A DNA stretch of 64,000 nucleotides from an uncultured Rickettsiales bacterium (GTDB taxonomy: Bacteria; Pseudomonadota; Alphaproteobacteria; Rickettsiales; UBA1997): NCBI GenBank assembly GCA_944392135.1, contig CALXVQ010000003.1:8075-72074 (forward strand), read 5' to 3'. A program made the translations under genes and the position numbers. The notes beneath the pieces are model-generated. The model saw only the letters and a program-made list of their open reading frames with translations, did not search any database and was not told the DNA's origin. Position 1 is the stretch's first letter. Every line of letters begins with the position of its first letter. This document shows positions 6,980 to 19,126 of the stretch, in pieces.

Positions 6980-7720
6980 TTATTCAATACCATAATAAAA
7001 ACGATTACATACATTATTTGAATATATATAATTACAACCAGATCTAAAATTGCCAGAGTTCCATATATTATCATCTAACTTTTGATCAAGTCTTTGAAAA
7101 ATCTTATTTTTTATATTTGGATTTTCTTTTTTAAAGAATGTTAGCCAAGTTTTTTCTTTCATTAAATATTTTGGAGATGTTGGACTAGTTTCATATATTC
7201 CCTTTTCATAATAATAAACATAATCAGGAAAAGCTTTTGAATATGGACAACCACCATTAAGTTCTGATAACATTGCAGTGCTAGGTATCTTTTTTTTAGG
7301 TTCAAAATCAATAATTTTATTTAAATATAAATCAACAAATGGACCAGTACGAGCAGTTGGTAGACCATAATCTTGATTACCAGAAACATATGGTGTACCA
7401 AAATTGTTATTATTATAACTTTGATTACTTAAATAGCCAATAAAACCAGAGCCAACAAAATCTCCTGGTAATCTATCTTTCATTGATTTAAAAGTATATA
7501 AAGCTTGTTTATAAGTTGTAAGTTCGTTAATTACAGACTGAATTTTTGCACTCTCAATCAAACTAGTCCCACCAGTAATACCAGCAATTAAAAGCCCAAT
7601 AATAATTAATACTATTGATAACTCAATAAGTGAAAATGCAAAGATATTATTTTCCTTTTTGTATTTATAAAATATTGTTAATAATTTATTAATAAAATTT
7701 TTACTTTTATATTTATCCAT
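6980..7720 (-). CDS. Type IV pilin / type II secretion pseudopilin-like protein (prepilin-type N-terminal domain)
   Basis: A basic leader of ~27 aa is followed by FAFSLIELSIVLIIIGLLIAGI. This is the prepilin cleavage/methylation helix with the conserved Glu at position +5. No partner pil/gsp genes lie nearby. Confidence 0.6.
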   Translation of the reverse strand: MDKYKSKNFINKLLTIFYKYKKENNIFAFSLIELSIVLIIIGLLIAGITGGTSLIESAKIQSVINELTTYKQALYTFKSMKDRLPGDFVGSGFIGYLSNQSYNNNNFGTPYVSGNQDYGLPTARTGPFVDLYLNKIIDFEPKKKIPSTAMLSELNGGCPYSKAFPDYVYYYEKGIYETSPTSPKYLMKEKTWLTFFKKENPNIKNKIFQRLDQKLDDNIWNSGNFRSGCNYIYSNNVCNRFYYGIE

Positions 7721-7876
7721 AAAAAATTATGTATTATTCGTAGTATTTGCTACTAATTTATTAATTATCATTATTAAAATCAATAAATATTATATATTTT
7801 ATAATTATTACTCTCACTAACTATGATTCAATAAATTTAATTTTTTAATATTTTATAATGATTTTAATTGCAATAG

Positions 7877-8013
7877 TAAAAATAAAAGGTGAAGCAAAAC
7901 TTCACCTAAAAATACTATAATAAAAATAGTAGCCCAAAAGTTAGATAAAGGATGGGCGACCTTACGAATCTCTTCTTATTATAGCAAGCTGTTTTAATTT
8001 CCTATGTTAAAAC
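7877..8013 (-). ncRNA. tracrRNA: tracrRNA (predicted)
   Basis: Minus strand 8013->7979 reads GTTTTAACATAGGAAATTAAAACAGCTTGCTATAA. By hand it pairs with nt 2-36 of the crRNA-sense repeat: 29 Watson-Crick pairs, 2 G:U pairs and 4 mismatches in two internal bulges. It is followed by a tail with hairpins and ends at AGGTGAAG-TTTTG-CTTCACCT plus TTTTATTTTT (7907->7877). The ends are inferred, not mapped. Confidence 0.75.
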
Positions 8014-8019
8014 AATAAG

Positions 8020-8049
8020 ATTATAAAAATATAAATTTCTTAAAGTCAA
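8020..8049 (-). promoter_or_regulatory. Sigma-70-type promoter of the tracrRNA
   Basis: On the minus strand: TTGACT (8049-8044), N18, TATAAT (8025-8020), then 6 nt to the first G of the anti-repeat. Confidence 0.55.
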
Positions 8050-8124
8050 GTCTTTTCAATAAACATATTGCAATTTTTAATAATCTTTTTTATATATAGT
8101 ATATCAATAATATATATAAAACAT

Positions 8125-11100
8125 ATGTTAAAACGAATATTAGGATTAGACTTAGGTATTTCAAGTATCGGTTGGGCAATTACCGAGATTGATGATTTGG
8201 ATTTTGTTAACAATAATGGTGAAGTTTTTCTTAGAAATGGAAAAATTGTTGATTGTGGTGTTAGAATTTTTGATGCTTGCGAACAGCCTGGTAATAAACA
8301 TGAAGCTTCTGCATTACCAAGAAGAAATGCTAGATTAAATAGAAGAAGATTATTTAGAAAGTCAGCTAGATGTAAAAAAATTAGAGAATTATGTGAAAAA
8401 CAATTTAATATTAAAATTGATGATAAATTTTTTAAAAAAACATTAGATAAAAATGATTTTAAAGATGTATGGATTTTAAGAAAAGAAGCATTAGAAAGAA
8501 AATTAAATGAAATAGAATTAAGTAGAGTTTTGTGTCATATAGTAAAGCATAGAGGTTGGGCTAGCAGAAGAAAAAGCGAAGAAAAAGAAGGTGATTCTGG
8601 TAAAATGAAAACTGCTATTGATAAATTAAAACAAGAATTAGGAGATGATAAAACACCTGGTTATTATTATGGAAAATTAAAAGCTGAAAGTTTAAATTAT
8701 GATAATGAAAAAATAATAAACGAACATCAAAATTATGATCATTGTATTGGAAGAAGTCAAAATGAATTTGAAATAAAAAAAATTTTTGAAAAACAGAGAA
8801 AATTTGGTTTTGATAAATTAAATGATGATTTTGAAAATGAAGTTTTAAAATTATTTAATTATGAAAAAGAAACTAAATCAATCAAAGATATGATTGGTTT
8901 TTGTTTATTTGAAAAAGGTGAATTTAGAGCACCAAAAGAATCTTATTCTGCTGAATTATTTAATGTTTATACAAAAATTAATAATTTAAAAGTATTAGAT
9001 ACAAAAGATGTTGATTATGATAAAAAGTTTAATAGTTTAGTGGAATTATTCAAAACTAAAAAAGAAGTAAAATATAAAGATATTAGAAAAGAATTAAAAC
9101 TTGATGATAATTATAAATTTAAAGGTTTAGATTATTATCAAGCTGAATATGTTGAATTTAAAAAAGCTAAAAATTCAACAGAATTAACATTATCTAATAC
9201 AGATAAAAATAATATTGAAAAATATAAATTAGAAGGCTTTTTTATAGAAGAACCAGATAAAGCTAGAAAAGTATTTTTTAAAAATGATAAAGGTGAATAT
9301 AAATATAAAAGCAAAAACGATATAGAAAATGTAAAAATATATTCAATGGTTGGTTATCATAAAGTTAAAGATGTATTAAATGATGAAGAATTTAAAAAAT
9401 ATATAGAAAAGGATAAAGATTCACCATTTATAATAGATACTATAATGGAAGCTTTGTCATATGAAAAAAATGATGAAAAAAGTAAAAAATATATGCAAGA
9501 TCATAATATTCCAGAAGATATTATTGATAAATGTTTAAATATTCAAACTAGTAATTTTATTCATATATCTTGTAAAGCTATTAGAAATTTATTACCATAT
9601 TTAGAAAAAGGTTTAACTTATGATAAAGCTTGTTTAGAGTGCAATTATGAATTTAAAGATGACTCAAAAAACAATCAACAAGATTTTTTGCCTACATTAG
9701 AAGAATATACAAAAGAAAATGATATTGCTAAATTAACAAATCCAGTAGTAAAAAGAACTCTATCACAAACAAGAAAAGTAATAAATGCAATTATTAGAAA
9801 ATATGGAAATTTTGATCAAATAAATATAGAATTCACAAGAGATTTAGGAAAATCTGCTGATGAAAGAATTAAAATTGAAAGAGGGCAAAAAGAATTTAGA
9901 GATTTAAAAGAAGAATTAAAAAAAGAAGCTTCTTTAATATTACATGTAAATGAAGATGTAATAACTGATAAACAAATTTTAAAATTAAGGCTATACAAGC
10001 AACAAGAAGGAAAAAGTTTATATTGTAATCCATTAGAAAAATTACCAGATTTAAAAGAAATTTTAACTGATGATAAATGTTGCGAAATAGATCATATTTT
10101 GCCTTATTCAAAAAGTTTTGATGATTCTTTAAATAATAAAGTTTTAGTTTTACCAAAAGAAAATCAAAACAAACAAAACAGAATACCTTTTGAATATTTA
10201 AAAGATAGCAATTGGGAAGAATGGAAAAAAATTATATGGAGTATACAAAGTTTACCATATATAAAAAGAAAAAATTTAACAACTGAAAGTTATGATTTTG
10301 TAGATAAATGGAAAGCTAGAAATTTATGTGATACAAGTTATATATCAAAATATTTAGTAAAATATTTATCTAAAAGCTTAAAATTTAAAGAAAATGATAA
10401 AATAAAAAATAAAATTCAAGTTAGACCGGGACAATTAACATCTTATTTAAGACATATATGGGGCTTAGGTGAAAAAATTAGAAGTGATGGCGACACACAT
10501 CATGTAGTTGATGCTATTATTATTGCTTGTGCTACTCAATCAATGTGTCAAATGATTTCTGCACTACATGCTACACAAAGAAGTGAAGATGTAAAACAAC
10601 AACAAAAAGAAATTTTTGATAAAATAAATAAATTAAAATCTTTATCAAAAACAAAAGAAATTGAAGAAAAAATTAAAGAATTAGAAGAAGAAAGCAAATG
10701 GTATAATTTAATTGAATCTAGACATATATTAGAAGGGCATTGTAAATTAAATGGTATATGGGAAAATTTTGTAAGTGATGTTACTAAAAAAGTAAACAAT
10801 TTAACAAAAACAAATGAAACAACTGGTTTACCAGAAAACAATCAAAATATTGTTTCACGAATGCCACGAAGAAAAATCACAGGAGAAGCTCATGATGCAA
10901 CAATAAAAGGTTTAGATAAAGTAGAAAATATAACTTATACTAAAACTAAATTATCAAAATTAACATTAAAAAATATAGAAAATTTGCAAGACAAAGATGG
11001 TGCCTCTAAAAATTTATATAATATATTAAAAAATAGATTAGAAGAATTTAATGGAGATGCCGAGAAAGCATTTAAAGAACCTATTTATATGACTAATAAA

Positions 11101-11670
11101 AATGAAGAATATGATGAAAATAAAACTCCACAAATAAAAAGTGTAAAATTAGTTTCTAATTATACAGGTGGTGGAGTTGAAATAAATAATGGTATTGCTC
11201 AAAATGGTGGTATGCCAAGAGTTGATATATTTTACAAAGATAACAAATATTATGCAGTTCCAATTTACATTGCTGATTTTGTAAAAGATGAATTGCCAAT
11301 CTTATCAAAACCACACAATATTGATTTTCCAATTGAAGAAAAAGAAGATGATAAATTTTACAATAAACATTTTGTTTTTAGTTTATATAAAGATGAGTTG
11401 ATTTATTTTAGAACAAAGAAAAACGAACAATATTTTGGTTATTTTTGTTCTTTTGATGCAAGTCAAGCTAATACAATTAAAATAGAATCATTAGATAGAA
11501 GTAAAAAATATTTAGTTGGCAATAAATATGATAAAGAAATTAGGATATCCTTAGGTAGTATAATATCTTTAAAAAAATTTCAAGTAGATCCATTAGGTTA
11601 TATAAACGAAGTAAAACAAGAAAAGCGACAAGGTATAATTGAGAAAAAATGTAAAAAACAAAAAAATTAA
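8125..11670 (+). CDS. cas9: Cas9, type II-C architecture (1181 aa from ATG 8125)
   Basis: RuvC-I ILGLDLGISSIGWAI; Arg-rich bridge helix ALPRRNARLNRRRLFRKSAR; HNH CEIDHILPYSKSFDDSLNNKVLVLPKENQNKQNRIPFEY; RuvC-III THHVVDAIIIACAT. Only cas1 and cas2 follow (no csn2 or cas4), which indicates II-C. The tracked start at 8068 is a TTG that adds 19 hydrophobic residues. Confidence 0.95.
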   Translation: MLKRILGLDLGISSIGWAITEIDDLDFVNNNGEVFLRNGKIVDCGVRIFDACEQPGNKHEASALPRRNARLNRRRLFRKSARCKKIRELCEKQFNIKIDDKFFKKTLDKNDFKDVWILRKEALERKLNEIELSRVLCHIVKHRGWASRRKSEEKEGDSGKMKTAIDKLKQELGDDKTPGYYYGKLKAESLNYDNEKIINEHQNYDHCIGRSQNEFEIKKIFEKQRKFGFDKLNDDFENEVLKLFNYEKETKSIKDMIGFCLFEKGEFRAPKESYSAELFNVYTKINNLKVLDTKDVDYDKKFNSLVELFKTKKEVKYKDIRKELKLDDNYKFKGLDYYQAEYVEFKKAKNSTELTLSNTDKNNIEKYKLEGFFIEEPDKARKVFFKNDKGEYKYKSKNDIENVKIYSMVGYHKVKDVLNDEEFKKYIEKDKDSPFIIDTIMEALSYEKNDEKSKKYMQDHNIPEDIIDKCLNIQTSNFIHISCKAIRNLLPYLEKGLTYDKACLECNYEFKDDSKNNQQDFLPTLEEYTKENDIAKLTNPVVKRTLSQTRKVINAIIRKYGNFDQINIEFTRDLGKSADERIKIERGQKEFRDLKEELKKEASLILHVNEDVITDKQILKLRLYKQQEGKSLYCNPLEKLPDLKEILTDDKCCEIDHILPYSKSFDDSLNNKVLVLPKENQNKQNRIPFEYLKDSNWEEWKKIIWSIQSLPYIKRKNLTTESYDFVDKWKARNLCDTSYISKYLVKYLSKSLKFKENDKIKNKIQVRPGQLTSYLRHIWGLGEKIRSDGDTHHVVDAIIIACATQSMCQMISALHATQRSEDVKQQQKEIFDKINKLKSLSKTKEIEEKIKELEEESKWYNLIESRHILEGHCKLNGIWENFVSDVTKKVNNLTKTNETTGLPENNQNIVSRMPRRKITGEAHDATIKGLDKVENITYTKTKLSKLTLKNIENLQDKDGASKNLYNILKNRLEEFNGDAEKAFKEPIYMTNKNEEYDENKTPQIKSVKLVSNYTGGGVEINNGIAQNGGMPRVDIFYKDNKYYAVPIYIADFVKDELPILSKPHNIDFPIEEKEDDKFYNKHFVFSLYKDELIYFRTKKNEQYFGYFCSFDASQANTIKIESLDRSKKYLVGNKYDKEIRISLGSIISLKKFQVDPLGYINEVKQEKRQGIIEKKCKKQKN

Positions 11671-11678
11671 TTTTTATT

Positions 11679-11703
11679 AGGCACTATTGAGTGCCTTTTT
11701 TAT
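11679..11703 (+). terminator. Hairpin with T-tract between cas9 and cas1
   Basis: AGGCACT-ATTG-AGTGCCT followed by TTTTTTATT, 9 nt after the cas9 stop. Confidence 0.55.
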
Positions 11704-11722
11704 TAATAAATTTTTAATTAAC

Positions 11723-12625
11723 ATGTCTTGGAGAATAATTTTAATTACAAAACCTTGTAAAATATCTTACAAAAATAATCAATTAGTTTATCAACCACAA
11801 GATGAAGAGGAATTGCAAGTTCCATTAGAAGATATAGGGGCTATTGTAATAGATACACCACAAATAAATATTACTGGTTATTTATTATCGGAAATTGCAA
11901 ATAATAAAATTGTTGTTTTAACTACTGATAATTCACATACACCAAATGGAATTTTTTTGCCATATATGCAATATTATAAAAATGCAGAAACTGCCTTCTT
12001 ACAAAGAGATTGGAGTGAAGCTTTTAAAAAAAGATTGTGGCAAAAAATAGTTCAACAAAAAATACAAAATCAAGCATTATGTATAAAAAATATAAATAAT
12101 AATTTATATAAATATTTAATTGGTTTATCAAAAGAGGTTTTATCGGGTGATACATCTAATATTGAAGGAAGAGCAGCAAAAGAATATTGGAAAGTATATT
12201 ATAATAATTTTATAAGACATGATAACACAAAAGTAAATTCTGCTTTGAATTATGTTTATATGATTACTAGAAGTTTAATAGCAAAAAATTTATCCGCATT
12301 AGGTTTTATTACTTGTTTTGGTTTGCATCATTGTAATATGTATAATTCTTTTAATTTAGCCGACGATTTAATAGAACCATTTAGAGGAATTATAGATTTT
12401 AGAGTAAAAAAATTATATGACATTGATGATAAAGATGATACACTTACAATAGAAGACAAACAAAAACTTATAGAAATTATTTTTTATGAAGTTAATTATG
12501 GGGGACAAAATTATAATATGATGTATGCTACACAATTATTAACTGAAAATCTATTAAACATTACAAAAAATAATGAAGCAAAAAATTTTATTTTACCAAC
12601 TTTTCCTAAGGATTTATTATTTTGA
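11723..12625 (+). CDS. cas1: Cas1 integrase
   Basis: 300 aa from ATG 11723 (MSWRIILITKPCKISYKNNQLV...). Cas1 motifs are present: NIEGRAAKEYW, FGLHH, ADDLIEPFR. The tracked TTG start at 11687 lies inside the upstream terminator hairpin. Confidence 0.9.
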   Translation: MSWRIILITKPCKISYKNNQLVYQPQDEEELQVPLEDIGAIVIDTPQINITGYLLSEIANNKIVVLTTDNSHTPNGIFLPYMQYYKNAETAFLQRDWSEAFKKRLWQKIVQQKIQNQALCIKNINNNLYKYLIGLSKEVLSGDTSNIEGRAAKEYWKVYYNNFIRHDNTKVNSALNYVYMITRSLIAKNLSALGFITCFGLHHCNMYNSFNLADDLIEPFRGIIDFRVKKLYDIDDKDDTLTIEDKQKLIEIIFYEVNYGGQNYNMMYATQLLTENLLNITKNNEAKNFILPTFPKDLLF

Positions 12626-12633
12626 GGTATTTT

Positions 12634-12966
12634 ATGGACTATACAAGGGATAAATTTATGAGAATGTTAGTATTTTTTGATTTACCTGTTAAAACAAAAG
12701 AAATGATGAAACAGGCAAATAAATTTAGAAAAGTTTTATTAAATGATGGCTTTCAAATGTTACAATTATCTGTTTATTCTAGAATAATTAGAAATGATTG
12801 TAATGTAGAAACTCACTTGCAAAATATAAAAAAACAAATACCACCACATGGTAGTATAAGAGTTTTAACAGTTACAGAAAAACAATATGCCAGCATGGAA
12901 ATTTTAGTTGGAGAACAAACAAAACAAGAAAAAAAAGTTGGACCTCAACAGCTTTTATTATTTTAA
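12634..12966 (+). CDS. cas2: Cas2
   Basis: ATG 12634 lies 6 nt after GAGG. FMRMLVFFDLPVKTKEMMKQANKFRKVLLNDGFQMLQLSVYSR is the typical type II Cas2 N-terminal ferredoxin fold. The tracked TTG start at 12622 overlaps the cas1 stop. Confidence 0.85.
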   Translation: MDYTRDKFMRMLVFFDLPVKTKEMMKQANKFRKVLLNDGFQMLQLSVYSRIIRNDCNVETHLQNIKKQIPPHGSIRVLTVTEKQYASMEILVGEQTKQEKKVGPQQLLLF

Positions 12967-13020
12967 TAAATCTCAAAAAAATGAAAAAATTTTATAAATT
13001 TTTCTAAAAAATTCTCATTT

Positions 13021-13062
13021 TTTCTTTAAAAAAATACAAAACAAACCCTTTATTATCAAGGG
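13021..13062 (-). terminator. Possible terminator for minus-strand array transcription
   Basis: On the minus strand: CCCTT-GATAATA-AAGGG followed by TTTGTTTTGTATTTTTTT. On the plus strand no T-tract follows the hairpin. The stem is short (5 bp). Confidence 0.35.
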
Positions 13063-13076
13063 CTAAAAAGCTTGCT

Positions 13077-14829
13077 ATTCTAACATAGGAAATTAAAAAC
13101 GCAAGCTATAACAGGCGTTGCCAACGCCTTTACTGGCGGTATATTCTAACATAGGAAATTAAAAACGCAAGCTATAACGTAAAATCATTCAGTAAGTTCA
13201 TCATTTTCATTCTAACATAGGAAATTAAAAACGCAAGCTATAACGATGATATAATAATTTTTCAACAAGCAACAATTCTAACATAGGAAATTAAAAACGC
13301 AAGCTATAACTAGGTTTGTTGTGTTCTGAATACAATCAAGATTCTAACATAGGAAATTAAAAACGCAAGCTATAACTGTTAATTGTTCGTCAATATTGAT
13401 TTTGCCATTCTAACATAGGAAATTAAAAACGCAAGCTATAACAAAAAGCTTTTGTTTTTCTTGTTTGTATAAATTCTAACATAGGAAATTAAAAACGCAA
13501 GCTATAACTTCGGCTTCTCAGTCCTCAAACTCTTCTGTATTCTAACATAGGAAATTAAAAACGCAAGCTATAACAAAAAATGTCTTATAATAAAAATACA
13601 CGAAATTCTAACATAGGAAATTAAAAACGCAAGCTATAACTATACGCGCAAATGACACCACCTTATAAAAATTCTAACATAGGAAATTAAAAACGCAAGC
13701 TATAACGTTATTTCTGCAATCAAATTATTTGCAAAAATTCTAACATAGGAAATTAAAAACGCAAGCTATAACAAGAAAGGAAGAGAATAGTAATGAGGCT
13801 TAATTCTAACATAGGAAATTAAAAACGCAAGCTATAACAGCCGTATTTGACATTTTTTCTTGGAATGCCATTCTAACATAGGAAATTAAAAACGCAAGCT
13901 ATAACAACGAAATTCCTTGAACTTTTGTTGGCAAAATTCTAACATAGGAAATTAAAAACGCAAGCTATAACTGAGGTATTGCTCGTCACCTAGACCGTTT
14001 TATTCTAACATAGGAAATTAAAAACGCAAGCTATAACTGTAAGTCTAACTCGCCCAACTATTGAAAAATTCTAACATAGGAAATTAAAAACGCAAGCTAT
14101 AACCGCGGTTGTGTTGATTTTAAAGGTATCTCCATTCTAACATAGGAAATTAAAAACGCAAGCTATAACCGCGGTTGTGTTGATTTTAAAGGTATCTCCA
14201 TTCTAACATAGGAAATTAAAAACGCAAGCTATAACTAGATTTATATTCAGCCCATTCTTTTACAGATTCTAACATAGGAAATTAAAAACGCAAGCTATAA
14301 CTGAATCAAATAAACCCATAAGCAACTCCTTATTCTAACATAGGAAATTAAAAACGCAAGCTATAACTTGGCAGTATGGCATTGTCGATGTAGGTTAATT
14401 CTAACATAGGAAATTAAAAACGCAAGCTATAACCGGTTATAAAGGTAAGATATCTGCTCTCCAATTCTAACATAGGAAATTAAAAACGCAAGCTATAACC
14501 GGTTATAAAGGTAAGATATCTGCTCTCCAATTCTAACATAGGAAATTAAAAACGCAAGCTATAACAAATAAGAATCTTTATAACTTTTATTTTCTATTCT
14601 AACATAGGAAATTAAAAACGCAAGCTATAACAGATACGACAACCGACACTTCTATCCCATTATTCTAACATAGGAAATTAAAAACGCAAGCTATAACAGG
14701 ACTACAAAACTATAAGACAGAGCAAAAATTCTAACATAGGAAATTAAAAACGCAAGCTATAACAATTAAAAAAATTAATAAAATTATTAAAATATTCTAA
14801 CATAGGAAATTAAAAACGCAAGCTATAAC
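13077..14829 (-). CRISPR. Type II-C CRISPR array, 27 repeats and 26 spacers
   Basis: There are 27 identical 36-nt repeats. Plus strand: ATTCTAACATAGGAAATTAAAAACGCAAGCTATAAC. crRNA sense (minus strand): GTTATAGCTTGCGTTTTTAATTTCCTATGTTAGAAT. Spacers are 30 nt (spacer 12 is 31 nt), giving a 66-nt period. The first repeat is 13077-13112 and the last is 14794-14829. Orientation rests on the GTT... start, tracrRNA complementarity and the extended -10 TGTTAGAAT at the repeat 3' end. Confidence 0.97.
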
Positions 14830-14832
14830 ATC

Positions 14833-14926
14833 TTGCCTTTTCTGCCCATATAGAACAAAACATTTATTAGTAAGTTTGTTGCAAATATTTTATTGAGTTT
14901 TTGTTCTATATGGGCAGAAAAGGCAA
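14833..14926. repeat. Perfect 28-bp inverted repeat with a 38-nt loop
   Basis: 14833-14860 is TTGCCTTTTCTGCCCATATAGAACAAAA. 14899-14926 is its exact reverse complement, TTTTGTTCTATATGGGCAGAAAAGGCAA. Confidence 0.9.
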
Positions 14927-14961
14927 TTTTAGCGAATCTATTTTTATAGTCAAGCTATAAC
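14926..14961 (-). repeat. psiR1: divergent 36-nt CRISPR-repeat-like element
   Basis: Minus strand: GTTATAGCTTGACTATAAAAATAGATTCGCTAAAAT. It has the same length as the canonical repeat and 23/36 identity by eye, with both termini conserved. It is identical to psiR2. Confidence 0.85.
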
Positions 14962-15218
14962 TTCGCATCTAGATAATCAAAAGGGCCATCTATAATAGCA
15001 TCTATAAACATCTCTTTTGCTCTCTCTTCAACTTCATCTTCATTTTTTATATATGAATTATCTGCTAATATTAAGCCTGTGTCTGGGTGTCTTACATAAT
15101 CCTCAACTACTATACCTACTTCTTTAGCAGCATCTTCTTCAAAACTATCTCTATAATCCTCCCAAACTTCTTTAATATACTCATCTAAACTAGATGTCTT
15201 CTCTTTATTATTACTCAT
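14955..15218 (-). CDS. Hypothetical small, strongly acidic protein (87 aa; 25 D/E versus 10 K/R)
   Basis: Tracked ORF. Its TAG stop is the TAG inside the GTTATAG of psiR1. I recognise no domain. Confidence 0.5.
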   Translation of the reverse strand: MSNNKEKTSSLDEYIKEVWEDYRDSFEEDAAKEVGIVVEDYVRHPDTGLILADNSYIKNEDEVEERAKEMFIDAIIDGPFDYLDAKL

Positions 15219-15227
15219 ATTTTCTCC

Positions 15228-15599
15228 TTAAATCATTCTAACTATATTAATATTAAAAATTATTATTAAATAACCTAACATTCCTATTAATAAAAAAAAA
15301 CTAACTATAAACTTAACTATTTTAAATCCTAAAGTTTTTTCTATATCTATATCTTCATATATAATTTCACTTTTAGGACAATAAAAACTAAAATCTGTTC
15401 TAGGTTTAAAATATTCTGTTATATCTAATGTTTCTATATCCACACCAGTTTCATTCCAAAACTTAAATACCTTAATATTATCACTCTTTATATCTTCTAT
15501 ATCTTTAAGAGTACTAATATTATTTTTCTTAAAATATTGGACTACTTGTTGTAATGTTTTACTCTGGTGTCCTTTAATTTCTAATCCGTTATATATCAT
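15228..15599 (-). CDS. Hypothetical protein with a C-terminal transmembrane anchor (123 aa)
   Basis: Tracked ORF with a C-terminal hydrophobic helix, FKIVKFIVSFFLLIGMLGYLIIIFNI. It lies 9 nt upstream of the acidic ORF on the same strand. Its ATG overlaps (ATGA) the end of a start-less 43-codon frame that begins inside psiR2. Confidence 0.5.
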   Translation of the reverse strand: MIYNGLEIKGHQSKTLQQVVQYFKKNNISTLKDIEDIKSDNIKVFKFWNETGVDIETLDITEYFKPRTDFSFYCPKSEIIYEDIDIEKTLGFKIVKFIVSFFLLIGMLGYLIIIFNINIVRMI

Positions 15600-15698
15600 T
15601 CTTCTACCATTTTTAATGCTTCTAGTATAGCTTCTTTTTGTATACTTAAAGCTAAATCTCTAAATTTTCTCTTAACTTCACTAGGAACTTCACTTTCT

Positions 15699-15734
15699 AT
15701 TTTAGCGAATCTATTTTTATAGTCAAGCTATAAC
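15699..15734 (-). repeat. psiR2: divergent 36-nt CRISPR-repeat-like element
   Basis: 36/36 identical to psiR1, with unrelated flanks on both sides. Confidence 0.85.
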
Positions 15735-16154
15735 TGCTGAAAGCCAACACTTTCTGAACTTTATTAATAAGTTTCTTGTACATATTTGTTAAAGTATAGC
15801 AATGTTAAAGCTATATAGACTTAATATTTTAAATTTATTTACTTTTAAAAATATTATTATATAATGTAAATGTAAGGTTTGTAGAGGAACGAGCTTTGCC
15901 TCCTAGTGCCTGTCTACATAGTAATTATTAATTAGTAGTGTAACCTTTAATAGCCTTACATCTAATAATCATAATAAGCTGTAATTACTAATTGTATTTT
16001 TAAATTCTTAAAATTTGGTTCTACAACAGCAGTTTTACCTTTATACCTTAATTTTAAAGCATTGCCATTTTCTTCAATTTTATCTTTTTAATAGTGTCTG
16101 TTAAATCATCAAAAATTTTTCAATGGTTATTTTATTTCTTTCTTGTATCTATTA

Positions 16155-16189
16155 ATTTTAGCGAATCTATTTTTATAGTGGACTATAAC
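16155..16189 (-). repeat. psiR3: divergent CRISPR-repeat-like element (35 nt)
   Basis: Minus strand: GTTATAGTCCACTATAAAAATAGATTCGCTAAAAT. It differs from psiR1/2 only in the centre of the TTATAG-N-CTATAA hairpin (CTTGA becomes TCCA), so the stem is preserved. Confidence 0.8.
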
Positions 16190-16407
16190 TTATCATTGTC
16201 TTCGTTATGATCTTCCATATTATTTAAAATATCTTCATAATCTTCTGGTGTGAATTTTGTATCAAATTCGTCAACTAGTTCAGGCAAACTATCATGAAAT
16301 AGTTTATCATTTGATTATGTATCATTAATATCTTCTGGTAATGAATCTATTATATTATCATTGGTTAAAATATTATTATCTTTTTCTAAATCTTTTTTAT
16401 TTTCCAT
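16183..16407 (-). pseudogene. Second acidic small ORF, interrupted by an in-frame TAA (16315-16317)
   Basis: Hand translation gives MENKKDLEKDNNILTNDNIIDSLPEDINDT*SNDKLFHDSLPELVDEFDTKFTPEDYEDILNNMEDHNEDNDKL*. As with the 87-aa ORF, it ends ...KL on the TAG inside psiR3. Confidence 0.3.
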
Positions 16408-16535
16408 ATTTTTATGTGTTAATTTATATATTTATATTGTAAATATTTATTTATTATTTGTCTAGTTTTTTTTATTAAAATAAGAAATTTATGATATGTT
16501 TATCATTAATAAATGTAATTATAATTATTTAAATA

Positions 16536-17051
16536 TTAATTATCCATTTTAATAATATCAAAATCAAAATATTCTTCATTGGTTTCAGCATATTTGGTGT
16601 AAGAACAACAATTCATTTCTTTTTGTAATTCTTCTGGAAATATAAATCTTGCAAAGCCATTTTCATAATGTTCTTTTGCCTTTTGTAGTGTTTTATAATG
16701 GCAATGTGTAAATATATTTTGTATAAATAATTCTTTGTCTTGTTTAATAATTAAGTCAACTTCGTGTTTTAAAAAAATAGTTGATGTAAGGCCTTCGAAT
16801 ATATTGCTTTTTTTATTGAAATAAAATTCTATTTGAAAGGCAAAATTATATTTATTGTAAATAAAAATAAATCTATATTTATTATATTGTTTTATATTCT
16901 GTTTTTCTATTTTTTTTAAAGAATTTATAATATCTTTTAAAAAGGAATAATACTTTTCTGTATTAGTACTTATTTTTGTAGTGAATCTTTGTAATGAATG
17001 ACTAATATCATAAATTAAAAAACTATTATATTTTAAAATTAAATGTCTCAT
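16536..17051 (-). CDS. Hypothetical protein (171 aa)
   Basis: Tracked ORF on the same strand as the array and the psiR cassettes. No motif recognised. Confidence 0.45.
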   Translation of the reverse strand: MRHLILKYNSFLIYDISHSLQRFTTKISTNTEKYYSFLKDIINSLKKIEKQNIKQYNKYRFIFIYNKYNFAFQIEFYFNKKSNIFEGLTSTIFLKHEVDLIIKQDKELFIQNIFTHCHYKTLQKAKEHYENGFARFIFPEELQKEMNCCSYTKYAETNEEYFDFDIIKMDN

Positions 17052-17359
17052 TATGTAAAAAATTATTTATAATAGTATATATTACAATATTGTTTTTTAA
17101 AAAAGCAGGCTTTTATATTTATGAGTAATTATTGAAATAAAAATAATACAATTAATATAAAACTTGATTATATTAAATAAGAAAATTTATAATTATTATT
17201 AATTTATTAGCTAATTTGTACCACCACCGCCTGTCATATTTAAAAATTCTAGAATTTTTATAGCATTTTCAGCTAGTAATGTGACAAATAGTGAAAATGT
17301 ATTTATAAAAAAATTAGCAATTTCTTTTATTGTTTCTACCATAATATGTTATATTATAA

Positions 17360-18460
17360 TTAAACATTAAATCTAAAATGAAAAATATCTCCATCTTGTG
17401 CTATATAATCTTTTCCTTCTATTCTTAATTTTCCGGCATTTTTGCAACCTTCTTCACCATTATATTTAATGTAATCATCATAAGCTATTGTTTCGGCTCT
17501 AATAAAACCTCTTTCAAAATCTGTATGTATTACACCAGCACATTGTGGAGCAAAACTTCCCTTTTTAACAGTCCAAGCTTTTGTCTCCATTTCACCTGCT
17601 GTAAAAAAAGTAAGTAAACCTAAATAATTGTAGGCTATTTTTATAATTTTGTCAAGTCCTGTTTCATTAAGTCCTAATGCTTCTAAAAATTCTTTTTTTT
17701 CTTCTGGACTTTCTAAAACAGCAATTTCAGATTCTACTTTTGCAGAAATGATTGTGGCAGTACTGCCTTTTTGTTTTGCATATTCTTCAACTTTTTTAGT
17801 CCAATCATTTCCAGTTAAAATGTCATTTTCATTAACATTACATACAAAAAATTCAGGCTTTGAAGTTAATAATTGCAACATTTTATAATGTTTTTCTTCA
17901 TCTTTTGTAGGTTTATATTCTCTTGCAGGCTTTCCTTCTTGTAATAAAGGTAAAATCTTTTTAATTAATTCTACTTGTTCCTTTAAATCTTTATCGCCAC
18001 CTTTTGCTTTTTTTTCTAAATTAGGTAATCTTTTTTCAAGGCTTTCTAAATCTGCTAAAACTAATTCTGTTTCAATTAATTCTAAGTCTCTAATTGGGTC
18101 AATAGTATTTTCAACATGTGTGATATTTGCATCTTCAAAACATCTAACAACATTCACAATACAATCAACTTCTCTAATGTGTGATAAAAATTGATTTCCT
18201 AAACCTTCACCTTTGCTAGCACCTCTAACAAGTCCTGCAATATCACAAAATTCAATTTGTGTTGGTACAATCTGTTTAGAATTAGCAATCTTTGCTAATT
18301 TTTCTAATCTTTCATCATTTACACAAACTCTACCTATATTAGGTTCAATAGTACAAAATGGGTAATTTTGAGCTTCTGCTTTTGCTGTTTGAGTCAAAGC
18401 ATTAAATAAAGTTGATTTTCCAACATTAGGTAAACCTACAATTCCACAAGTTAAAGACAT
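17360..18460 (-). CDS. ychF: Ribosome-binding ATPase YchF
   Basis: 366 aa with GIVGLPNVGKSTLFNALT, DIAGLVRGASKGEGLGNQFL and the C-terminal TGS-like FRFNV. Confidence 0.95.
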   Translation of the reverse strand: MSLTCGIVGLPNVGKSTLFNALTQTAKAEAQNYPFCTIEPNIGRVCVNDERLEKLAKIANSKQIVPTQIEFCDIAGLVRGASKGEGLGNQFLSHIREVDCIVNVVRCFEDANITHVENTIDPIRDLELIETELVLADLESLEKRLPNLEKKAKGGDKDLKEQVELIKKILPLLQEGKPAREYKPTKDEEKHYKMLQLLTSKPEFFVCNVNENDILTGNDWTKKVEEYAKQKGSTATIISAKVESEIAVLESPEEKKEFLEALGLNETGLDKIIKIAYNYLGLLTFFTAGEMETKAWTVKKGSFAPQCAGVIHTDFERGFIRAETIAYDDYIKYNGEEGCKNAGKLRIEGKDYIAQDGDIFHFRFNV

Positions 18461-18532: not shown

Positions 18533-19126
18533 TTATATTTCAGCCAAAATAATTTCTTTTACATTTCCACTATTAATAGAATTCATGGTAATTTCCATTA
18601 TATCATTTTCAAACCTAACTGGTACATCAAACTCAAAACTAGCTTTAATAGTACTATCTATTTCTGGTGCGGTATTTAAAGTAATTAAACCAGTAGTTAA
18701 ATCAATATTAAAATCTTTACTTTCTATATCATTAATAAAAACTCTTACTGTTGATATAACGGGTTTTGTGATTTTTCTATAATAAACAATATTATCACTA
18801 ACTCTATAAGCTTTTATTAATTGAAATTCTTTTGTTTCTCCATTCCCTACACCTATATATTGATTTTCTGCTTGATAATCTGTAAAATCTTTAAATCTAA
18901 AACCATAACCAGCACCTTTGACATTTCTAAAAAATGTTATTAATTCGTCTAGTTCAGTTTTTGTTTTAATACCATTAATGATATTAAATTTCATTTTATT
19001 AGAATTCCAATTAATATTTCTTTGTTCATAACCATTTTTAGCTTTTATAATTGTTGTATTGAATTCTAAAATTGAAGAAGAATTAAAGGCAATAGATTCT
19101 GGAAATCTTATTTCTAAAAAAGACAT
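18533..19126 (-). CDS. TIGR02217/DUF2460-like protein (gene-transfer-agent/phage tail-associated family)
   Basis: MSFLEIRFPESIAF...GYEQRNINW...FFRNVKGAGYGFRFKDFTDY follows, from memory, the F.EVRFP...G.E.RN..W...FF..RRG...GFR..D..D pattern of the alphaproteobacterial GTA g12-like family. Confidence 0.65.
   Translation of the reverse strand: MSFLEIRFPESIAFNSSSILEFNTTIIKAKNGYEQRNINWNSNKMKFNIINGIKTKTELDELITFFRNVKGAGYGFRFKDFTDYQAENQYIGVGNGETKEFQLIKAYRVSDNIVYYRKITKPVISTVRVFINDIESKDFNIDLTTGLITLNTAPEIDSTIKASFEFDVPVRFENDIMEITMNSINSGNVKEIILAEI

Follow-up and report, generated by a model that had tools for sequence, protein, structure and literature searches.

We examined 64,000 nt of DNA (the window) from an uncultured Rickettsiales bacterium of ~25% G+C, which contains a type II-C CRISPR-Cas locus. 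The cas-distal end of its array carries three copies of a second repeat, psiR, separated by intervals of gene size. An initial annotation, made from the sequence alone, had treated psiR as a conserved family in its own right and had proposed regulatory, addiction, promoter or mobile-element roles for it. The analyses presented here instead suggest, with a probability of about three in four, that the three psiR copies are the oldest repeats of the array and not a separate RNA gene, that the 737-nt spacer slot between two of them holds a fragment of phage DNA, and that the region is a variant-repeat array fossil. The features concerned are as follows.

13077..14829, minus strand: canonical array of 27 repeats and 26 spacers of 30-31 nt, the minus strand being the CRISPR RNA (crRNA) strand.
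14830..14925, minus strand: 96-nt interval from the first canonical repeat to psiR1, with a perfect 27-28-bp inverted repeat and a core of ~40 nt.
14926..14961, minus strand: psiR1, apparent variant CRISPR repeat (GTTATAGCTTGACTATAAAAATAGATTCGCTAAAAT) with a promoter-like TTGACT-16-TAAAAT.
14962..15698, minus strand: insert of apparent phage origin, 737 nt, in the spacer slot psiR2-psiR1.
15699..15734, minus strand: psiR2, identical to psiR1.
15735..16154, minus strand: 420-nt interval in the spacer slot psiR3-psiR2, with no convincing open reading frame (ORF).
16155..16189, minus strand: psiR3, the terminal copy, outermost and most diverged, 35 nt long and without a -35 element.

The positions of the three copies and the 737- and 420-nt lengths of the intervals between them agree with the initial annotation. 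psiR1 and psiR2 are identical (36/36 positions, or 37/37 with one extra base), and psiR3 departs from them only in its centre, where TCCA stands in place of CTTGA; the number of copies expected by chance is 0.00 (100 shuffles). On the crRNA strand the canonical repeat reads GTTATAGCTTGCGTTTTTAATTTCCTATGTTAGAAT. Both repeats are 36 nt long and match at 23/36 positions, with 13/36 differences; the first 11 nt, which are the 5' end of the crRNA repeat, are identical, and the 3' end is TAAAAT in psiR as against TAGAAT in the canonical repeat. The earlier proposal of a link between psiR and the CRISPR repeat, by descent or otherwise, is therefore upheld by the length and the termini of psiR, and also by its spacing in related strains.

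Sister lineages of the locus (L-numbers below) were recovered by exact-protein look-ups. In L014/L022, which lie in another genomic context, the order is psiR*-30 nt-psiR2-insert-canonical repeats. L017 has psiR3-30 nt-psiR2-insert-psiR1-30 nt-psiR1'-26 nt-canonical repeat-leader, L037 has psiR3-30 nt-psiR2-insert-psiR1-96 nt-repeat, and L039 has a single psiR followed by 96 nt and the repeats. Thus, in L014/L022, L017 and L037 (not in the window itself), psiR alternates with 30-nt spacers, once with a 26-nt spacer, at a start-to-start distance of 66 nt. Because it alternates with spacers of normal length at the normal period, psiR is a repeat of the array, and these comparisons identify it as a variant CRISPR repeat at the old array end. 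Where the window has 420 nt, L017 and L037 have 30-nt spacers that differ from each other, within flanks that are 94-95% identical. The statement in the initial annotation that the intervals are not spacers consequently does not stand, as the slots hold spacers of 26-30 nt in sister strains and the 737-nt insert is flush with both of its repeats. Three psiR copies with the same spacing were present in at least 8 independent assemblies from different samples; hence the layout is not an assembly artefact, a possibility that had been raised at the outset.

Several observations place psiR at the old trailer end of the array. Beside the repeat, the cas2-array flank stays conserved even where Cas9 identity between species drops to 65-68%, and L039 (spacers 66-75) and L040 (spacers 66-71) share their psiR-side spacers but differ on the cas2 side. 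This polarity agrees with the literature, which describes transcription of type II-C arrays as running toward the variable, leader-side end (PMC8092290; PMC12638026, the latter citing Zhang 2013 and others). New spacers would accordingly enter next to cas2, and crRNAs would be transcribed from repeat-internal promoters toward the cas2 end. The most diverged copies are the outermost ones (psiR3 and psiR*), as expected for terminal repeats. New repeats arise by copying of the leader-adjacent repeat at each acquisition, so the near-identity of the psiR copies requires neither selection nor recent duplication, the two options previously considered; that it does not result from independent decay was correctly recognized. 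psiR1 and psiR2 could be the two daughters of one repeat or members of a homogeneous repeat block. We found psiR only beside the host array: a scan of GTDB genomes matched only this Rickettsiales species, IMG/VR contained no match to psiR or to the canonical repeat, and the 12 matches in JGI metagenomes were all chance matches.

The 737-nt interval contains the following reading frames.

About 15596-15698, minus strand: 3' end of an orf145 homologue.
15228-15599, minus strand: orf123, intact.
14955-15218, minus strand: acidic 87-aa ORF, truncated at codon 85, with its stop inside psiR1.

Alignment to phage contigs shows that the interval is, on this evidence, phage DNA lying in a spacer slot. 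Window positions 14962-15698 align at 79-82% nucleotide identity (752 nt at 79% to L018-L020; 654 nt at 82% to L021). Homology begins right after the last psiR2 base, inside orf145, and ends right before the first psiR1 base, at codon 85 of the acidic gene. The insert is contiguous in the phage, is cut in mid-gene at both ends and is flush with both repeats. We identified ~30 homologues of the 87-aa acidic protein (76-89% identity), most of them 97-134 aa long. The window protein departs from these exactly at the psiR1 boundary (..DYLDA/KL*, the slash marking the boundary) and is missing the C-terminus, which indicates that it is a truncated phage gene. Two short homologues likewise read into a repeat: P0153 into psiR (..SYSLTIKIDSLK) and P0154 into the canonical repeat (..CYSLRF*). 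The initial annotation had noted that two acidic ORFs (14955-15218 and 16183-16407) stop on the TAG of GTTATAG, and both do; the first seems to end on the repeat TAG because the insert stops inside the acidic gene at psiR1. Scans of the small ORFs against Pfam and PHROGs returned nothing significant, and neither database gave a family or function for orf123. We rejected the explanation that psiR encodes part of a protein (..LDYKNRFAKI..), as the frame following psiR2 is what remains of orf145, a phage gene that has lost its start and kept its C-terminus, and neither the phage alignment nor the junctions place psiR within any conserved coding sequence.

Full-length homologues of the acidic gene are found on contigs of ~50 kb whose products include a terminase large subunit, endolysin and DNA ligase, together with a dUTPase, GTP cyclohydrolase I/PTPS and an SNF2 helicase. 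The donor appears to be a tailed phage; its contigs include ERZ28613918 scaffold_504 and ERZ27280381 k141_1399087. On these contigs orf145, orf120 (the counterpart of orf123), the acidic gene and a DUF7307 gene follow one another without interruption. The donor was not detected among GenBank phages (DNA and protein searches) or in IMG/VR, and the 16-kb phage segments contain no psiR-like or repeat-like sequence.

Matches to the donor phage contigs, with 1-3 mismatches, were obtained for eight canonical spacers, drawn from the arrays of the window, L014 and L043. One of them is window spacer 13, whose protospacer on phage contig L018 has 1 mismatch and an N4-(C/T)AAG-type 3' flank. The protospacers cluster in the early-gene region next to the terminase gene (L018 3526-8727; L021 3939-8922). 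All but one are on one strand, with a conserved flank on the 3' side in crRNA-strand orientation, and a protospacer-adjacent motif (PAM) of roughly N4-(C/T)AAG stands behind most of them. Judged by its spacers, this CRISPR system appears to target the phage whose fragment fills the spacer slot. Self-targeting was rejected as a driver, since none of 117 spacers in four arrays matches the chromosomal phage fragment. N4-(C/T)AAG is absent at the right ends of the insert. Of the 3 distinct right-end sites, 2 have N4-ATTA, one of these 2 in the L018 phage variant alone. The motif also follows the old-end protospacer of L043 spacer 4, and its background frequency is 1.7% per site; we regard it as a possible lead, not a result.

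The insert ends differ between strains. On the right, it stops at codon 85 of the acidic gene in the window and L043 and at codon 57/58 in L017, L035 and L037; in L014 it stops at codon 49, and a canonical repeat follows immediately. The left end is different in L017, where one more phage ORF is present in an orf67-orf120 arrangement. All junctions coincide exactly with the edge of a repeat, and none has useful microhomology or the regular PAM. With at least 5 independent flush junctions across strains, their recurrence is evident from these alignments. Microhomology-mediated deletion is not supported as a source of the different right junctions, as the junction sequences share at most 1 nt.

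How the fragment entered the array is less certain than what it is. Our preferred route, held tentatively, is that Cas1-Cas2 integrated an over-long DNA fragment, a reaction that would leave identical repeats on both sides, with flush junctions, in a single step. The other route, which is somewhat unlikely, is recombination of phage DNA with a pair of resident spacers, the gap between the two being filled in as a result. On the array-fossil reading the stretches between psiR copies are spacer slots, three of them grossly over-length here (420, 737 and 96 nt). Later remodelling flush with the repeats, and allele exchange with phages, could have produced the different versions seen in sister strains: recombination of the chromosomal fragment with new spacers or with infecting phages would give variable flush ends and mosaic alleles.

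psiR would have kept the repeat-embedded promoter and gained a -35 box. A promoter scan found a full TTGACT-16-TAAAAT on the crRNA strand of psiR1 and psiR2, and none of the -35 box in psiR3. Since the promoter was kept and the -35 box gained, psiR probably transcribes downstream DNA, including orf123, and the psiR promoters may still fire. The earlier suggestion that psiR acts as a portable promoter organizing an accessory operon is thus plausible in its first half; its second half fails, as the supposed operon starts and ends inside phage genes. The broader claim that type II-C Cas1-Cas2 has repeatedly placed 0.4-0.9-kb phage DNA at repeat boundaries, where psiR with its strong internal promoter would express the intact captured gene, appears doubtful at present.

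Several points weigh against reading the region as an array fossil with a simple phage insert. All comparison loci are metagenome assemblies. We found no literature precedent for Cas1-Cas2 integrating 0.4-0.9 kb in vivo. The insert is more diverged between strains (82%) than its flanks (94-95%) and its alleles are mosaic; therefore, a single clean integration is too simple. For example, orf120 in L035, L037 and L017 resembles the phage version more than it does window orf123, contrary to what the flanks indicate. All six host lineages examined possess an intact orf123/orf120, with ratios of nonsynonymous to synonymous substitution rates (dN/dS) of 0.26-0.58, which hints at a retained function and not an inert filler. 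Sources of the 420-nt and 96-nt intervals were not found in the phage segments or in other loci, so an over-length spacer is demonstrated for one of the three intervals. Finally, the model leaves unexplained the likeness of psiR to a lineage-specific segment of the trans-activating crRNA (tracrRNA), CTATAA...AGATTCG.

The intactness of orf123 motivates the alternative that survives best, although we consider it unlikely: the fragment was kept as useful, with psiR2 acting as a portable promoter for a domesticated orf123. This is compatible with arrival of the fragment as described above. orf123 would be a small, C-terminally membrane-anchored protein that might exclude superinfecting phage. The gene has stayed intact in the six lineages even though its acidic neighbour is truncated at three places, at the dN/dS values given, and the psiR2 promoter (10/12 consensus positions) lies ~100 nt upstream in sense orientation; in L017, the psiR2 orthologue directly precedes another phage ORF with a strong ribosome-binding site. 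However, the divergence may predate capture or exchange and have accumulated in phages, so that dN/dS is no measure of host selection. Moreover, phage orf120 is translationally coupled to its upstream gene (ATGA overlap), which is decapitated here, leaving a weak ribosome-binding site; lineage L039 does without the fragment, and the gene belongs to no family or function that we could find.

It is considerably less probable that the region is the remnant of a mobile element or prophage that integrated site-specifically into a repeat through a repeat-mimicking attachment (att) site, psiR being a hybrid att site composed of the repeat 5' end and an arm of the element. psiR does equal the canonical repeat for exactly 11 nt before diverging, and PhiAP1.1 of Streptococcus pyogenes provides a precedent (bioRxiv 10.1101/2020.10.09.333658). 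In L014 the outermost copy, psiR*, is broken at repeat position 8/9 (L014/L022 9417-9452), and the whole locus occupies another genomic context: the entire CRISPR-cas module, including psiR and the phage insert, sits there between FtsK and RmuC. In L010, a related species, the trailer-end repeat is truncated at the same position 8/9 (about 9650-9690) and adjoins a gene that resembles a tyrosine recombinase; we take it for one from its sequence alone, with no family search. On the other side, identical psiR copies flank the insert on both sides and also surround ordinary 30-nt spacers, the same slots hold normal spacers in sister strains, and the 16-kb phage segments lack repeat-like sequence. 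The insert itself comes from the early-gene region of the phage, with mid-gene cuts at both ends and neither an integrase nor an att site. The mobile-element scar proposed in the initial annotation was right in direction, in that the 737-nt interval is apparently phage DNA.

The remaining alternatives concern RNA function and require the rest of the locus, in which a cas9-cas1-cas2 operon spans 8125..12966 on the plus strand.

7878..8013, minus strand: tracrRNA, with anti-repeat, CTATAA-TAAGAAG-AGATTCG, nexus-like stem and terminator hairpin.
8125-11670, plus strand: cas9 (ORF; Pfam HNH_4/RuvC_III on the identical product).
11687-12625, plus strand: cas1 (ORF; Pfam Cas_Cas1 on the identical product).
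12622-12966, plus strand: cas2 (ORF; Pfam CRISPR_Cas2 on the identical product).
12967..13076: leader, the flank separating cas2 from the array.

The tracrRNA is 98-99% conserved in L014, L017 and L039, and directly after its anti-repeat the minus strand reads ...GCTTGCTATAATAAGAAGAGATTCG.... As first described, this segment shares the blocks CTATAA and AGATTCG with psiR, and AGATTCG is specific to the tracrRNA of this lineage. The significance attached to the likeness is weak: 3.4% of random window segments match or beat the score of the psiR-specific 25 nt in unconstrained local alignment (p ~0.03), and we regard the resemblance as real but statistically modest. Repeat and tracrRNA have AGCTTG in common, and a crossover there would produce a sequence close to that of psiR. 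The miniature repeat:anti-repeat hairpin previously drawn for psiR exists in sequence but is barely stable (-2.5 to -4.2 kcal/mol; z between about -1.4 and -1.6), and in psiR1/psiR2 it is not even the minimum-energy fold. The psiR3 orthologues have the centres TCCA, CCCA or CCCGA, one of them without the 3' arm of the hairpin; we saw no compensatory change, and neither psiR3 of L017/L035 nor psiR* of L014 retains the hairpin. Sequence comparison limits pairing between psiR and the tracrRNA anti-repeat to ~8-9 bp (an 8-bp lower stem and one further pair), leaving positions 12-36 unpaired, and psiR-flanked units are for this reason probably not functional guides.

Given these properties, it is most improbable of all that psiR transcripts are functional Cas9 ligands, whether natural single guides or regulatory RNAs resembling scaRNA (small CRISPR-Cas-associated RNA) or CreA that act through the miniature stem or through tracrRNA pairing: the 8-bp pairing, the two shared blocks, the lineage-specific AGATTCG and the promoter inside psiR would suit such a role, but psiR has ~13 nt of tracrRNA-like sequence with no nexus or 3' terminal hairpins, its hairpin is weak and not conserved, and what lies 5' of psiR2 varies with the strain, being 420 nt in some and one or other of two unrelated 30-mers elsewhere. 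The guide search that had been suggested was also negative: across the 64-kb window, the cas9 and tracrRNA promoters included, nothing else matches the last 11-16 nt 5' of the three psiR copies, and a lone match to one 10-mer is attributable to chance. Likewise, the CreTA-like addiction module proposed earlier is not supported, as we found no toxin gene and no partial target match in the region or the 64-kb window. Unusual as this end of the array is, psiR does not appear to represent a new class of Cas9-associated RNA, guide RNA or addiction module.

Other parts of the locus vary among relatives. The nexus-like stem of the tracrRNA covaries (AGAU/AUCU in the window; GAAU/AUUC or GAA/UUC in relatives L010-L012), and the loop UAAGGUCGC(C/U)CAUCCUU is conserved beside it in the window and in L010, L011 and L012 upstream of cas9. 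In L039, positions 9454-13452 (window 8125-11670) encode a 1332-aa Cas9 that is identical to the window Cas9 in the first ~22 and last ~35 residues and only 33% identical in its body. It is flanked by the same tracrRNA (1 mismatch), cas1, cas2 and repeats, and appears to be an allele swap within an otherwise constant locus. The 16 nt of the leader adjoining the repeat are conserved across species, reading AGCAAGCT[T/A]TTTA[G/A]CC in the window, L014, L017 and L012 and similarly in L010. Two spacers of the window array are each tandemly doubled (14104-14199 and 14434-14529); these doublings and an internal deletion distinguish the sister assemblies, and in L001/L004 a gap of 120 nt falls at spacers 3-9. 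The canonical array is reduced to one repeat in L015, L017, L035-L037 and L045, close relatives having 27-43 repeats, and in L035-L037 the lone canonical repeat is followed by sequence other than the usual leader and cas2.

The 420-nt interval is 99.5-100% conserved in L035 and L043. A G+C-richer stretch within it (~15860-15975, minus strand) folds better than 200/200 shuffles (z -2.97), and a promoter-like site, TTTACT-16-TATAAT, lies just upstream of 15860-15975 on the plus strand. The interval has no Rfam match; an Rfam scan of 7000-18000 at E<=1 returned only spurious miRNA-precursor matches on a long hairpin. The region of the 96-nt interval folds at -61 kcal/mol (z -7.2). We compared this palindrome at window 14830-14925, L039 7255-7350 and L043 8477-8572. 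Its ~40-nt core is inverted in L039-L046 relative to the window and L035-L038, and the asymmetric outer ends are unchanged, which looks like an in-situ flip across the 27-28-bp inverted repeats. The flip appears recent, because the adjoining 420 nt are the same in L043 as in the window. No clear promoter was seen in either core orientation. We also rejected a composition of spacer, decayed repeat and spacer (30+36+30), since the middle 36 nt are unlike either repeat. The source of the psiR-flanked 30-mers was not found.

The second acidic ORF noted in the initial annotation lies beyond the array.

16183..16407, minus strand: acidic 74-aa host ORF, a pseudogene with an in-frame stop at 16315-16317.

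psiR3 supplies its last two codons and stop, and its homologues, all of 74-79 aa, are found on long host contigs with the same end point. Between ychF and this ORF lies orf171 (window 16536-17051), which has no Pfam domain and belongs to a small family of ~170-aa proteins (14 representatives at E<=1e-3, most 23-32% identical). Farther along, a DUF2460 protein (window 18533-19126; PHROG 2913, E 3e-62) stands alone among housekeeping genes and may be gene-transfer-agent or phage-tail-like.

These findings carry a warning for annotation, as a conserved second repeat family around ORFs beside a Cas9 array can turn out to be an array fossil that holds DNA taken from a phage, and a phage gene that has been cut short can pass for an acidic anti-CRISPR ORF. 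They also document an active Cas9 system together with its phage in an uncultured Rickettsiales lineage. The Cas1-Cas2 ruler mechanism sets spacers at about 30 bp and does not predict phage fragments of several hundred bases flush in spacer slots. Two ideas thereby become testable: that the integrase can now and then take very long substrates, and that spacers serve as recombination anchors for phage DNA. If long DNA was indeed captured repeatedly, the CRISPR array would be a platform for gene capture and expression, and a natural bridge from spacer acquisition to casposon-like integration.

Among known systems, psiR most resembles the degenerate repeats at array trailer ends, in its position at the old end, its contiguity with the array, its strand, its length, its conserved termini and the greater divergence of the outermost copy. 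It differs from them in forming a homogeneous family in which positions 12-33 are replaced wholesale, instead of carrying scattered point mutations, and in bracketing inserts of 96-872 nt as well as normal spacers. tracr-L of S. pyogenes and scaRNA of Francisella novicida each combine a conserved guide that has a genomic target with a full Cas9-binding scaffold. Like these, psiR is repeat-related, lies near a type II locus and could pair with the tracrRNA or mimic a repeat:anti-repeat stem; unlike them, it has neither a conserved targeted guide nor a full scaffold. To our knowledge, CRISPR Cas1-Cas2 does not insert kilobase-scale DNA. Kilobase insertion with target-site duplication by a casposase or other Cas1-family enzyme would give exactly the architecture seen here, a link that is by analogy only.

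The type II-C repeats of Neisseria meningitidis and Campylobacter jejuni contain a -10 element at the 3' end that reads into the next spacer, toward the leader (PMC12477760, PMC8092290). The canonical repeat studied here carries an extended -10 (TGTTAGAAT) at its 3' end, like Neisseria, and psiR also has its -10 element there. In contrast, psiR lacks the extended -10 TG, has a near-consensus -35 (TTGACT) at 16-nt spacing, and would transcribe phage coding sequence. PhiAP1.1 in S. pyogenes (Varble et al.) is a complete prophage with an integrase and a repeat-mimicking attP. The two cases share phage DNA within a type II array, bounded by repeat-like sequences; the Rickettsiales insert, however, is a 0.65-0.87-kb internal fragment of a phage early region, without an integrase and with no repeat-like sequence in the phage segments examined.

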